Below, in pieces: positions 16,806 through 21,847 of a stretch of DNA of 64,000 bases. Each line of letters opens with the position of its first letter. The first letter of the stretch is position 1. The notes under the pieces are model-generated. The model did no database searches and was not told the DNA's origin. It saw nothing but the letters and a program-made list of their open reading frames with translations. This DNA comes from Nitrospirota bacterium (lineage in GTDB: Bacteria; Nitrospirota; Thermodesulfovibrionia; UBA6902), in contig PIVU01000002.1 of the NCBI GenBank assembly GCA_003354025.1, positions 8,004 to 72,003 on the forward strand, written 5' to 3'. Both the position numbers and the translations under genes were made by a program.

Positions 16806-17522
16806 TTATTTAGTCAAGCGCACTAACTCTTCCTCAGCCCTTATTCTTTGCCTGCTCTCCAGCGGCTCCAGCTGAATTACTTGCTTGAAAGCTTTTCTTG
16901 CCTCTTCGAGTTGACCACTGTCAGTATAGGCGTAACCCTGGTTCAGATGAAGTGTCGGGTTATAAGGGATGCCGTCAATAAGTTGTTTGTATAAATTAAT
17001 AGCCTTCACATGTTCTCCCGCTGAATTATAGGCAACACCAAGATCATTTGCAGCCTGCACGAAACCTGCCTCATTGGCGACGACATACTCGAGGTGTGCT
17101 ATGGCTGAAGTAAAATCACCCAAATGTAAATGGGCGAGTCCAATATAATAATGAGCTTTTGTTGATTCCGGTTCTCTTTGGAGGACAAAGTTGTAACATT
17201 CAATCGCCTTATCGATTTCTTCGATAAAGTAGTAAGACAATCCTAATTTCAGATAATCTTCATTACTTTCAGGCTCAAGTGATGTAGCTTGCCGAAAGGA
17301 CTCAACGGCTTCAGTCACCATTTTAAGTTCCTTGTAAATTAATCCCATGTTGAAATAAACTTGTTTATTGTCAGGGCTGCTTTCAAGTAGTTTTTTATAA
17401 ACATCCAGCGCTTCGCTTAACTTCCCTGTTTGCTGATAGTTAATAGCTAAATCAAAAAGAGTTTTTCTATCGCTTCTTAAATTAGTTCTCTTTTCGTTAT
17501 TTATCTTTTCTTGACTTTCCAC
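16806..17522 (-). CDS. TPR-repeat protein translationally coupled to the DUF4157 effector (candidate chaperone/immunity)
   Basis: 238 aa of TPR units. Its start overlaps the stop of the upstream effector gene at 17522. Confidence 0.6.
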   Translation of the reverse strand: MESQEKINNEKRTNLRSDRKTLFDLAINYQQTGKLSEALDVYKKLLESSPDNKQVYFNMGLIYKELKMVTEAVESFRQATSLEPESNEDYLKLGLSYYFIEEIDKAIECYNFVLQREPESTKAHYYIGLAHLHLGDFTSAIAHLEYVVANEAGFVQAANDLGVAYNSAGEHVKAINLYKQLIDGIPYNPTLHLNQGYAYTDSGQLEEARKAFKQVIQLEPLESRQRIRAEEELVRLTK

Positions 17523-20500: not shown

Positions 20501-21847
20501 AAGATCGGGGGCACTCCTCAGTTTTCGAACGAAGTCCTGACTACCTTTAGGAATCTTACTGCCTGCACGCAAACCAACATAGCCGGTTATTGCATCCCCA
20601 CTTTTATTGGTGTTGATTATCAAACCAGGCTGCAACTGCTGAGCAGTCTCGCCTGTTTTTGCAAACATTTCATGTTTCGCAGGTAAAAACCCCTGGTCAA
20701 TTTTATAGCCCCTATCTCTTTTTATTAACTTTACTTTTCCCTTTGCAAAACCACCAAACTGCATATTTACGGATCCGGTTTTCTGAGGTTGCCTATCTAA
20801 CCAAGCATCAATGGATTCACCCGGCACTAACTTCGGCTTCCCTTTCAGTTCCACAACTCCTGGTGCGGTACTTTGCTCGCCTTTAGCTTTTCCGGCAGTT
20901 CCAGTTTGGTTCAGAGACTCCCGCTGCACAATATGGAGATTACTATATGTTTTCCTTGATACTTTATTTGAAAGTCCGGGAGCTGCATTTTGCTGGACCA
21001 CATGTGTAGCCTCATGGGCCATCAGCTTTACATCATCAGGTGATTGCCCCTCACCTAACCAGATGTCGTTTTTATGTGTAAATGCCCGTGCTTTTAAGCC
21101 TTTTGCCGCATCACGTGCAGAACTGTCATTATGGACTCGAACACTGCTGAAGTCCGCACCGATGCCGGACTCCAACCTGCTCTTAGTTTGAGGGTTAAGT
21201 GGCCGTCCACTGCCTTTATCTGCAATAGCCTTTGATGCCGTATTGGTCATTTGGGAAGGGGAATTTACAGCGTCTGATTTCTGTTTTGTTTGACACTGTT
21301 CGTCCTCATCTTCTGCTTGATGCTGGATAAATTCGCATTGAATAGTCTCTTCCTCTTCGGGATGATCCTCCTGTCTTTGAACTAACGGGGTAATCTGATC
21401 AACCAGCGGCTCGGCCTGAAGCTTTTCTTCCTCGTCTTCATATTCCGGCTGGCGCTGGAGCTTCAGATCGGGCATAGTCATCACCTGATCAGCGATACTA
21501 TCCGCCTCTTTTTCGTATTTGTCATTGGGTTTACCGATGGTTAGCTTGGTCTGGACAGGCTCATCTTCCTCGTCCTCGGGCTGCCGTTGAAGCTCTTCAT
21601 CAGGTTCTTCACTCTCAGATTTTTGAAGGAGTGCCGCACCACCTGAGAGGCCTTCCATAACTCTATTAGCCTCTATCACATAATTGCCGTCATTTTCATC
21701 GGTGACCGATTTGGCCTGAACTTCATCGGGCCGCAGGATTTTGCGCATTGCAATCTGTTGCGCAGGATCCATCGAACGGTAAAGGGAATGATGCGACTTG
21801 TGCCCGTTAGAAGTCGATTGTTTCTCATTAGCTGCGAAAGTCTTCAT
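17522..21847 (-). CDS. Giant eCIS-type cargo/effector: acidic repeat N-terminus, DUF4157 metallopeptidase-like domain (HEATH), Lys-rich linker, unknown C-terminal domain
   Basis: 1441 aa. Residues ~230-290 (FSSVRVHNDSSARDAAKGLKARAFTHKNDIWLGEGQSPDDVKLMAHEATHVVQQ) match the DUF4157 signature. Residues 85-170 carry three QRQPE(D/Y)E-acidic repeats. No signal peptide. Confidence 0.75.
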   Translation of the reverse strand: MKTFAANEKQSTSNGHKSHHSLYRSMDPAQQIAMRKILRPDEVQAKSVTDENDGNYVIEANRVMEGLSGGAALLQKSESEEPDEELQRQPEDEEDEPVQTKLTIGKPNDKYEKEADSIADQVMTMPDLKLQRQPEYEDEEEKLQAEPLVDQITPLVQRQEDHPEEEETIQCEFIQHQAEDEDEQCQTKQKSDAVNSPSQMTNTASKAIADKGSGRPLNPQTKSRLESGIGADFSSVRVHNDSSARDAAKGLKARAFTHKNDIWLGEGQSPDDVKLMAHEATHVVQQNAAPGLSNKVSRKTYSNLHIVQRESLNQTGTAGKAKGEQSTAPGVVELKGKPKLVPGESIDAWLDRQPQKTGSVNMQFGGFAKGKVKLIKRDRGYKIDQGFLPAKHEMFAKTGETAQQLQPGLIINTNKSGDAITGYVGLRAGSKIPKGSQDFVRKLRSAPDLIGLQGFGVSKFPKITNEIKDGSLELGLSDVPLALGRILNGTFSLGANEEKITSFSGNLSVDVPKLATVNMELDRTPEGKTKGKVDAAVQLTKNINGNVIVVWDDGNLSGEGSVGYAGDKFSGKVTLKVMERDKAEQLEQQKKAPEKEVVQKSASKGKSKAKPDYVLFGEGELDVTFSDWLGGKAQVIIDQKGFLTVIGKITPKDFELFPQKDYVKKLFKVEARASYGIPVVGNIFIFANIGADAFAKIGPGKFYKISIDGTYSNDPKKAKDFSIKGSFNISAAAGLRLRGEAGAGLEILAHDIKAGAGINGLAGIRGYAEATPVIGYREKPAPTAEDKKGEFYIRGDLEIAAQPFLGLSGDLFVEVDAPWWSPVPDKKWTWPLGGKEWPIGGSFGLNANIDYVFGSGKAPAVELKPVEFDSSKFLTDLYADKAQPTSKKADKPGTWKEKNTKDAPPSKEAKTGNAKLGKAEALPAAKSKVKPAVGKKDVKPANPNSRTANGKTVKEYQKEARQKEGKPDLKSPMKGKGKEGKTGKADTKKDKQDKWQRGVKVVKQTLSYAEKTGIDQKELNGILKKIMKRKEYGFNQLYAKESPKDKQKWTVFGAMSPVEQILTLAKSKMKFGEKKFVNNAGEEHVLSISGEGKTAKLLMASNSKGPLRIYLADLKIVKSDPRYNAMEEAKRLASKTLADVGGTSDQERSKNVEDDLNKLSIALKTLASNLSLPLPPKAKLKYSDDRSGVGKYSKLDTITTENSTVGTKPSGSTKEFDQLRAHGLTSGAGIDKWVRMHLVSEELGGKGVKENWVPAPNSVNTGTQVLSQFEAPLKRLLYKGSKGANGKDSPSVIWVKGEVLDTHAPDASTYKLKDFPSTVEFTAGLYFPKGKKWEKDTKARFKENVPIRKPDKGKLPSLSIASYTALSAVEGGEIFTRTMTKIMKVVSKGGNEPYRSVANMINRIKNHSKDPKRNYSRLYKKFDDSKQKIKDLVKNKKIRVG

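Follow-up and report, generated by a model that had tools for sequence, protein, structure and literature searches.

DUF4157 is highly specific for eCIS (odds ratio 2614) and is found N-terminal to toxins, with long 'linkers' in between (PMC8213781); it also occurs in T6SS effectors (as cited in PMC11297309). The DUF4157 cargos Cgo1 and Cgo2 of AlgoCIS from Algoriphagus machipongonensis sit in the tube lumen (PMC8894135). Their loading requires the NTD and the AAA+ ATPase Alg15, while DUF4157 is dispensable (preprint 10.64898/2026.05.27.728243), and the domain is therefore regarded here as a mark of eCIS toxins and not as the loading device itself. The AlgoCIS NTDs were reported to be system-specific. 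A second point of reference is Pne1 of the Pseudoalteromonas MACs, a proven eCIS nuclease cargo with PF13930 that kills cells.

In the 64,000-nt stretch of Nitrospirota DNA analyzed here (the window), a complete eCIS operon is followed by a gene for a 1441-aa protein (Table 1), hereafter called the effector. It is a further example of the known eCIS toxin type, with a predicted nuclease warhead, and not a new kind of toxin. The reading that we favor, with a probability of roughly 0.7, is that the effector is a DUF4157-marked eCIS cargo toxin whose swappable C-terminus is a diverged PF13930 nuclease, and that the TPR protein encoded downstream is an accessory of the beta-rich 'body' of the effector.

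With the EATs described by Geller et al. (2021) and Danov et al. (2024) the effector shares an N-terminal DUF4157 domain, a C-terminal toxin and a very long region between the two, as well as a gene position at the 3' end of the eCIS operon and an acidic, probably disordered N-terminus. It differs from them in that the 'linker' consists of a conserved folded beta-rich domain of ~600 aa, a Lys-rich segment and two pre-toxin modules, and in that the toxin belongs to a diverged PF13930 branch that is not called by Pfam in the effector. Cgo1 and Cgo2 have the order of disordered NTD, DUF4157 and large CTD that is also predicted for the effector; both systems possess an AAA+ ATPase of the Alg15/Pvc15 type, and with its 1228 aa Cgo2 is about as large as the relatives of the effector that lack a toxin (class B). 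In the published text consulted no function is assigned to the CTD of Cgo2, which would imply that it is no nuclease. Pne1 resembles the effector as an eCIS cargo with a PF13930 DNA/RNA non-specific nuclease that can be aligned to Spd1, but it comprises only 496 aa, has neither DUF4157 nor a body and carries an N-terminal NLS. The predicted nuclease of the effector stands apart from it in a sub-family that has diverged further and possesses a pre-toxin module and a helical tail of its own. CDI, Rhs, LXG and T6SS evolved effectors likewise combine a constant delivery part with interchangeable C-terminal toxin cassettes. Unlike these, the effector would be delivered by an extracellular phage-tail-like particle, and a search for a conserved immunity gene next to it had a negative result.

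Table 1. Features of the effector locus, with positions in the window (nt) and residues of the effector (aa).
Feature	Residues (aa)	Position (nt)	Strand	Basis or remark
Effector ORF, 1441 aa	1-1441	17522..21847	(-)	ATG 21847, stop TAG 17524-17522
N-terminal region, acidic, candidate loading sequence	1-215	21203..21847	(-)	composition and AlgoCIS analogy
Three [LV]QRQ + acidic-run repeats	86, 130, 156	21338..21595	(-)	motif count
Conserved motif KLTIGKPNDKYEKEADSIADQVM, upstream of DUF4157	100-123	21479..21550	(-)	homologue comparison
DUF4157 / eCIS_core (PF13699)	216-289	20981..21202	(-)	E=5.8e-22, 78.1 bits vs cutoff 22
HEATH (HExxH motif in DUF4157)	278-282	21002-21016	(-)	
Conserved beta-rich 'body' domain (~600 aa), without annotation	~300-890	19178..20950	(-)	
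Lys-rich linker	~890-1006	18830..19180	(-)	contains conserved motif NxRTAxGKTVKEYQKEA
Small conserved module (WQRGVKVVKQTLSYAEKTGI...)	1007-1075	18623..18829	(-)	last shared part before toxins diverge, in class A relatives retaining it
Pre-toxin module	1076-1192	18272..18622	(-)	co-inherited with nuclease core on other N-terminal bodies; alignment A1
Predicted beta-beta-alpha-Me (His-Me finger) nuclease core	1193-1356	17780..18271	(-)	alignment A2
Helical C-terminal tail	1357-1441	17525..17779	(-)	conserved within nuclease sub-family; alignment A1
TPR protein, 238 aa		16806..17522	(-)	TPR_1 E=3e-35; candidate accessory/chaperone of body
Near-consensus sigma-70-type promoter-like site upstream of effector		22232..22260	(-)	TTGACA-17-TATGAT + TG, 11/12 matches
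AAA+ ATPase of eCIS operon, Pvc15/Alg15 type		37340..38671	(-)	PF00004 E=6e-26

The effector gene in its eCIS operon

The effector gene forms the 3' end of the eCIS operon, on the same strand and directly after a fibre-like gene. Upstream, the operon encodes sheath, gp19 tube, Pvc16, AAA ATPase, spike, baseplate J, P2_I and DUF6519 proteins. The AAA+ ATPase is probably the loader of the effector cargo, a role deduced from the experiments on Alg15. T6SS genes were not found within the window. A strong promoter-like site of the sigma-70 type precedes the effector gene, the total number of such sites across the region being within chance expectation. An endolysin-like gene was observed downstream.

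The ORF is identical to P0001, which lies on a 73-kb contig and is the only member of its NCBI cluster, and relatives in a scan of reference genomes reached at most 62% identity. Homologues of the effector occupy an equivalent position, adjoining P2_I, DUF6519, AAA or CIS_TMP genes. At L007, a DUF4157-toxin locus with a different body, a CIS_TMP gene is annotated, which indicates that this system has a tape-measure gene of its own. The whole effector protein gave zero matches to PDB sequences, and neither the effector nor the small downstream ORFs matched NCBIfam, PADLOC or PHROGs. An earlier reading made from the letters alone (the sequence-only reading) had proposed a DUF4157-marked eCIS-associated toxin, which is borne out by the PF13699 match together with the position 3' of the eCIS operon.

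Modules from the N-terminus to the toxin junction

The effector is composed of seven or eight modules, namely the acidic N-terminus, DUF4157, the body, the Lys-rich linker, two pre-toxin modules, the nuclease core and the helical tail, in this order. Stretches of 50 aa within aa 51-200 carry net charges from -7 to -13, D+E outnumbering K+R by 43 to 13 over the whole interval, and by composition the fraction of order-promoting residues is 0.21 in the N-terminal region versus 0.30 in the beta domain. Three QRQ-acidic repeats, a number reached in 0 of 20000 composition-preserving shuffles, are located here; at the DNA level they are not tandem repeats. At least two such repeats are present in 63 of 120 homologues (range 0-9), and the conserved motif at aa 100-123 recurs as an EAD-type motif in 91 of the 120. 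The acidic first ~200 residues with three repeats and a DUF4157 signature at residues ~230-290 including HEATH had all been picked out by the sequence-only reading, and each was recovered. The DUF4157 match, on which that reading had staked its assignment, scored far above the cutoff (Table 1). Its idea of a loading signal also gains by analogy, as the acidic N-terminus corresponds to the loading region proven in AlgoCIS Cgo1 and Cgo2 (10.64898/2026.05.27.728243). We infer that this region is a candidate loading sequence.

The largest conserved part of the protein, the body, had been left out of the module layout proposed initially. It comprises a small barrel-like sub-domain (aa ~327-430) and, after this, a long meander of amphipathic antiparallel strands, among them aa 719-747, 750-778 and 789-816. 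More than 1000 eCIS-linked proteins, spread over many bacterial phyla and some archaeal MAGs, have this domain in common, and many of them stop directly after it (class B, toxin-less). In a second search 1149 body relatives were obtained, again with variable toxins. Algoriphagus entries were absent from the named body homologues in a search with a Bacteroidota query. Matches of the body profile to PDB sequences and Pfam were at chance level only. A weak resemblance to membrane beta-barrels was seen; assignment to an LptD or MACPF fold was dropped, with Foldseek TM values of at most 0.19. The long amphipathic hairpins suggest either a membrane-interacting or translocation function or an easily unfolded scaffold that fills the lumen.

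The body is followed by the Lys-rich linker (117 aa, 26% Lys, 34 K+R versus 14 D+E), which is kept among class A relatives bearing different toxins. A Lys-rich tract of ~110 residues had been predicted and does exist, although not directly after DUF4157, since the ~600-aa body lies between the two. The first of the pre-toxin modules (aa 1007-1075) is 33-57% identical in L001, L006, L012, L016 and L017 (tblastn), and the BLAST spans of class A relatives extend to aa ~1030-1080. In the top ~20 homologues aa ~98-1070 are common at 44-61% identity, after which PF13930, Ntox15, AHH or deaminase domains follow; among the relatives, nuclease, Ntox15, AHH and GH-E toxins have been swapped onto a kept body. 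Conversely, the same nuclease cassette is present on unrelated N-terminal bodies (P0022, P0121-P0124), and the second pre-toxin module is joined to the nuclease core in most of the 665 representatives retrieved with the A1 profile, which lie mostly at protein C-termini. Judged from these sequence comparisons, the effector is of polymorphic-toxin design, with a constant part up to about aa 1070 and an exchanged toxin. As close relatives carry other toxin domains at the same place, the C-terminus is taken to be the toxin module. A step in base composition at the toxin junction was considered as a sign of cassette exchange and rejected, as GC3 falls gradually from 0.47 to 0.35 and no sharp boundary is seen. 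A tape-measure or structural role of the effector was rejected because its relatives exchange enzymatic toxin domains at their C-termini.

The predicted C-terminal nuclease core and the helical tail

The C-terminal ~450 residues had been described as free of recognizable motifs and as a possibly novel toxin domain. This view has to be given up, because the region contains an H...N...N core and 33 of 36 diverse core relatives (alignment A2) match PF13930 at E<=0.01, the best at E=4.7e-9. The effector core itself reaches E=0.0095-0.023 and 15.3-16.6 bits, under the gathering score of 27 bits. Within the 36 relatives H1237, G1245, N1251, N1260, W1294 and G1324 are invariant and E1270 is near-invariant. 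The H/N/N residues of the core were aligned with H121, N136 and N145 of Spd1, such that H1237 corresponds to H121 and N1260 to N145. In Spd1 both H121, the general base, and N145, which binds the metal, are essential (PMC3258162). The core shares with known beta-beta-alpha-Me nucleases the H...N...N motif, in which the general-base His closes a strand and the metal-ligand Asn opens a helix. It deviates from them in the motif RMH versus RGH, and overall similarity is marginal (profile versus 2xgr, E=0.83). By sequence, the C-terminus falls into the PF13930 beta-beta-alpha-Me nuclease clade as a diverged member and is a predicted nuclease. A tail-fibre-like C-terminus, which had been named as an outcome that would speak against a toxin, was not encountered.

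Structure prediction had been proposed earlier as a check of the C-terminus. The AF2 model of aa 1076-1441, which was based on a 6-sequence alignment, places a beta-beta-alpha succession at the motif (strands 1234-1238 and 1252-1256, helix 1258-1276), but the pLDDT is 59 overall and below 50 in the active-site region, including these elements. A Foldseek search with the model returned nothing significant; EXOG and EndoG were among the hits, had E>0.5 and were given no weight.

The helical tail gave no match to Pfam. Assignment of an HhH was dropped, since the query was without a match and a weak HHH_6 match was obtained in only 2 of 8 relatives. Other PF13930 toxins on the same body carry a ComEA-type HhH at the position of the tail.

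The TPR partner, competing readings and proposed mechanism

The stop codon of the effector shares one base (TAGTG) with the GTG at which the TPR gene is predicted to begin, this being the start of the longest ORF; the overlap had been noticed initially. The exact sequence of the TPR protein was absent from the protein collection searched. Against TIGR02552 (SycD/LcrH-type chaperone) it scored 68.7 bits, below the cutoff of 104.8, and only generic TPR repeats are recognized. The gene immediately downstream on the same strand encodes a TPR protein at 7 of 8 loci of class B and, among the close loci of class A, at about 10 of 24. A TPR gene is missing at 16/16 loci of the 35-42% identity group and at over half of the close ones and is thus not obligatory. 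Loci without a downstream TPR gene had zero TPR matches in their flanks, except L006, where matches lie upstream.

The TPR protein had been suggested as a chaperone or immunity partner. A classic toxin-immunity module, in which it would block the active site of the nuclease in the producer, has in its favor that the gene occupies the usual immunity position, immediately downstream and translationally coupled, and that no other candidate lies between the two genes. We nevertheless hold it to be very unlikely, because the same TPR family, in a comparison where TPR-TPR similarity is partly generic, follows toxin-less class B proteins as well as class A proteins with unrelated toxins (e.g. P0005), and because P0022, the closest full-length relative of the nuclease module and situated on a different body, lacks a TPR gene at its locus and is not followed by any gene on its strand. 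At the loci of three other nuclease relatives the downstream gene was resolved in two, with TPR repeats in neither, and the genes that follow the other carriers of the module are unrelated (420 aa with a faint SMI1_KNR4 match, 275 aa and 612 aa). A gene conserved downstream of nuclease relatives was not found. The effector has the constant N-terminal part and the interchangeable C-terminal toxins of polymorphic toxins, whereas a cognate immunity gene that co-varies with the toxin is not seen downstream; the TPR gene co-varies with the body. The lack of an evident cognate immunity gene would be unusual for a toxin aimed at bacteria. Since the TPR gene follows the body even without a toxin and is absent beside the same nuclease on another body, the chaperone half of the suggestion is favored over the immunity half, and from these gene neighborhoods it is plausible that the TPR protein assists the beta-rich body as an accessory protein or chaperone.

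Two further readings concern the toxin itself and its route. The C-terminus may be a dead or repurposed His-Me-finger-like fold, e.g. a nucleic-acid binder, or another enzyme, with the activity residing elsewhere, such as in a DUF4157 zincin protease or in a pore-forming body. The sub-threshold Pfam score and the model of low confidence would fit this, as would the weak likeness of the body to membrane beta-barrels and the toxin-less class B relatives, in which body and DUF4157 must act alone. We regard it as unlikely, because H1237, N1251, N1260 and E1270 are intact and (near-)invariant, which argues for selection on the active site, most of the clade matches PF13930, relatives have bona fide toxin domains at the same position, and the toxicity of AlgoCIS Cgo1 was independent of HExxH motifs (PMC8894135). 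Even less credible is that the effector is a polymorphic toxin which merely adjoins the operon and is exported otherwise (e.g. by a T6SS) or released by lysis. The occurrence of DUF4157 in T6SS effectors, the pairing of DUF4157 with a Tox-PAAR-like domain in P0022 and the promoter-like site, which suggests separate transcription, speak for this route; against it stand the gene position in the operon, the like placement of the homologues, the window without T6SS genes and the eCIS specificity of DUF4157, and we consider it highly improbable.

For the favored reading, an eCIS-delivered nuclease toxin, the following course is proposed. By analogy to AlgoCIS and MACs, the AAA+ ATPase of the operon would recognize the acidic, presumably disordered N-terminus, unfold the effector and thread it into the tube lumen. 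Upon contraction, the cargo would be expelled into the target cell and refold, where the metal-dependent C-terminal nuclease would degrade nucleic acid as Pne1 does. The co-translated TPR protein may serve the body in the producer, e.g. in solubility or presentation for loading, as gene neighborhoods suggest, and is unlikely to neutralize the nuclease. Self-protection of the producer may be a matter of timing, with the effector made just before lysis.

The 'very long linker' that the literature places between DUF4157 and toxins is in this large protein family a conserved folded beta-rich domain for which Pfam has no model. A bolder and rather unlikely proposal is that the body is a self-inserting membrane translocation or pore module, which refolds in a beta-barrel-like manner in the target membrane after unfolded ejection and passes the toxin across, the TPR protein being its dedicated holdase in the producer. 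If this were true, eCIS cargos would possess a built-in device for a second stage of delivery, and the toxin-less class B proteins would be explained as pore-forming effectors in their own right. For cataloguing and engineering, the effector offers a candidate natural loading sequence, a modular site of toxin exchange near aa 1070 and a natural cargo of very large size. The function of the body and its TPR partner bears on how eCIS cargos are handled before loading or after ejection.

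N-terminal region and operon setting of the effector

The 1441-aa effector matches PF13699 (currently named eCIS_core, earlier DUF4157) at aa 216-289 (Pfam, E=5.8e-22) and carries a HEATH motif at aa 278-282. According to gene and domain annotation of the window, a complete eCIS operon is located 5' of it on the same strand. The sequence-only reading had proposed a DUF4157 cargo-type toxin with this motif in an eCIS setting; both the observation and its overall interpretation hold up. The acidic N-terminus with three repeats was likewise recovered: aa 51-200 contain 43 D+E versus 13 K+R, and [LV]QRQ followed by an acidic run occurs at aa 86, 130 and 156, in agreement with the proposed nucleotide range. 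Shuffling the N-terminal region 20000 times with its composition preserved never gave three such repeats. Examined as DNA tandem repeats, they proved not to be such.

Features of the effector and of its surroundings (window positions unless marked aa)
Feature	Position	Strand	Description
Effector ORF	17522..21847	-	1441 aa; ORF call
Upstream eCIS genes		same as effector	NusG-like regulator, sheath, gp19-type tube, Pvc16, AAA+ ATPase, CIS tube, spike, baseplate J, P2_I, DUF6519 fibre-like protein
AAA+ ATPase of the eCIS operon	37340..38671
Regulatory candidates directly 5' of the sheath gene	44856-50980	-	NusG/RfaH-like protein, two sigma-54 activators, PAS histidine kinase with PilS-like membrane domain
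Sigma-70-type promoter-like site	22232-22260	-	near-consensus; TTGACA-17-TATGAT with TG extension, 11/12 matches
Lys-rich linker	aa 890-1006 (18830-19180)	-	117 aa, 26% Lys
Conserved module 1, 5' of core	aa 1007-1075		common to class A relatives retaining it, whatever their toxin
Conserved module 2, 5' of core	aa 1076-1192		co-occurs with the effector's nuclease
C-terminal tail	last 85 residues		helical, conserved within the nuclease sub-family
TPR gene	16806..17522	-	238 aa
Two overlapping small ORFs after the TPR gene	15642-16647	-	228 aa and 113 aa; hydrophobic N-terminal segments
M6-like metallopeptidase and papain-family C1 peptidase	12164-15446	-	763 aa with two proprotein-convertase P-domains, and 294 aa; downstream of cargo region
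Endolysin-like gene	9833..10570	-	245-aa PG_binding_1 protein downstream of the effector; PHROG endolysin families, E=3.9e-15

The promoter-like site sits between the stop of the DUF6519 gene and the effector start and may serve as the cargo-TPR pair's own promoter; across the region, the overall count of such sites is at chance level. The genes directly 5' of the sheath gene plausibly form a regulatory module of the eCIS operon. Downstream, the two small ORFs have the lowest GC3 of the area (0.33-0.38). Searches of Pfam, NCBIfam, PHROGs and PADLOC gave no match for them, and none of the 56 related loci searched contains a homologue. The M6-like metallopeptidase gene has a GC3 of 0.58, clearly above its neighbours; together with the C1 peptidase it could encode additional secreted or effector proteins, or both genes could be unrelated.

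A conserved body with exchangeable toxins

A search of 5.8 billion proteins yielded 537 relatives of the effector, for which two architectural classes were defined by local BLAST mapping and an iterated profile. Class A (about 20 proteins among the matches listed, including the query) is 44-61% identical from aa ~98 to ~1070 and diverges completely beyond, its members ending in Endonuclea_NS_2 with or without ComEA-type HhH, Ntox15, AHH or deaminase Pfam domains. This constant part with varying C-termini identifies the effector, at the sequence level, as a polymorphic toxin on a large conserved scaffold. In class B (58 of 120 among the matches listed, 1060-1410 aa) the counterpart of aa ~460-885 stops 2-14 residues before the C-terminus, so that no toxin extension is present. 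Starting from a Hymenobacter homologue, another search gave 1149 further body relatives (E<=1e-10), with variable toxins and, in some, DUF4157 missing. Many body-family proteins of ~1000-1100 aa (among P0364-P0391) lack PF13699 annotation and retain C-terminal toxins (PF13930, Ntox15); the body-plus-toxin unit thus also exists without DUF4157.

The body (aa ~300-890) has no sequence relative in Pfam or the PDB. Its AlphaFold2 model (24-sequence alignment) reached a mean pLDDT of 72, with ~90 for a sub-domain at aa ~327-430, the remainder being an antiparallel beta-meander of strongly amphipathic strands of up to 28 residues. We read the modelled body as an architecture built from long amphipathic hairpins and claim no fold membership; a membrane-interacting role is put forward as a hypothesis only. 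A reference-genome scan located the body in numerous, very diverse bacterial phyla and, with 51-60% identity, on contigs of two archaeal MAGs, Methanobacterium sp. UBA375 (L008) and Thorarchaeota (L016). This distribution suggests wide horizontal spread or, possibly, binning contamination.

A Lys-rich tract exists as proposed, at the end of the body and not directly after DUF4157. The linker is more than low complexity: it contains the motif NxRTAxGKTVKEYQKEA, which is kept among class A relatives with different toxins. It could act as a processing site or an NLS-like element, or bind nucleic acid. Published work describes DUF4157 proteins whose toxins are separated off by 'very long linkers' (PMC8213781). 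Their overall layout is that of the effector, in which, however, the 'linker' is a conserved domain.

The probable C-terminal nuclease

The C-terminus had been considered a potentially novel toxin domain; instead, its ~435 aa contain a diverged core of the PF13930 (Endonuclea_NS_2) clade. Residues 1076-1440 are most closely related to the C-terminus of P0022 (37% identity), a protein whose body differs (Tox-PAAR-like plus DUF4157). A six-sequence profile matched 665 proteins (E<=1e-3) in an exhaustive search of 1.84 billion representatives, mostly C-termini of proteins of 1100-1800 aa. In a 36-sequence core alignment (query aa 1193-1360), H1237, G1245, N1251, N1260, W1294 and G1324 are invariant and E1270 is near-invariant. 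Scanned singly, 33 of these 36 sequences matched PF13930 (best E=4.7e-9), the query itself with E=0.0095 and 16.6 bits, under the 27-bit cutoff. Among PDB sequences the core profile reached solely the nuclease Spd1 (2xgr, E=0.83), aligning its H121, N136 and N145 with H1237, N1251 and N1260. Of these Spd1 residues, His121 serves as general base and Asn145 as the direct metal ligand; both are essential (PMC3258162). The AlphaFold2 model places strand-strand-helix exactly at the motif, in a weak model with low confidence there, and a fold search with it was uninformative. PF13930 is the domain of Pne1, the nuclease carried as cargo by MACs and lethal to insect and mammalian cells (10.1101/543298). 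By its sequence, the effector domain is best assigned, as a diverged representative, to an already known nuclease-toxin clade with direct eCIS precedent.

The TPR partner and a proposed mode of action

As noted from the sequence, the effector stop TAG overlaps by one base the GTG start of a 238-aa ORF consisting of TPR repeats, suggested to be a chaperone or an immunity partner. Among homologues, a TPR gene follows immediately at P0002 (27 nt) and P0005 (99 nt), lies upstream at P0012 and is absent from the P0003 and P0022 loci. Across 49 reference-genome loci, a downstream same-strand TPR gene was found at 7 of 8 class B loci (-24 to +90 nt from the stop), ~10 of 24 close class A loci (27-1263 nt) and none of 16 loci of the 35-42% identity group. 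Loci without it had no TPR match in 8-kb flanks, except L006 with matches upstream. Genes downstream of other carriers of the nuclease cassette are mutually unrelated. Taken together, these loci show the TPR gene tracking the body and not the toxin, which argues against immunity and, from gene neighbourhoods, for an accessory or chaperone role, the gene not being universal. At the P0005 locus (L004), a 260-aa gene after the TPR gene (11230-12012) starts with the cargo-type motif LQRTIGNQAVQRLI, also present at the P0003 and P0005 N-termini; it possibly encodes a second small cargo with the same loading sequence.

Two DUF4157 proteins of AlgoCIS, Cgo1 and Cgo2, fill the tube lumen (PMC8894135). 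[quoted passage not shown] By analogy, the AAA+ ATPase of the operon would recognise the acidic N-terminus as the loading sequence. The effector would be stored unfolded, contraction would expel it, and after refolding in the target its nuclease would become active there. For the effector, no evident immunity gene was found. The endolysin-like protein could be the lysis enzyme that frees the particles; its gene fits release by lysis, which could make immunity unnecessary. The overall architecture of the effector is already described in the literature; the unannotated body domain and the TPR partner are the parts most deserving follow-up.
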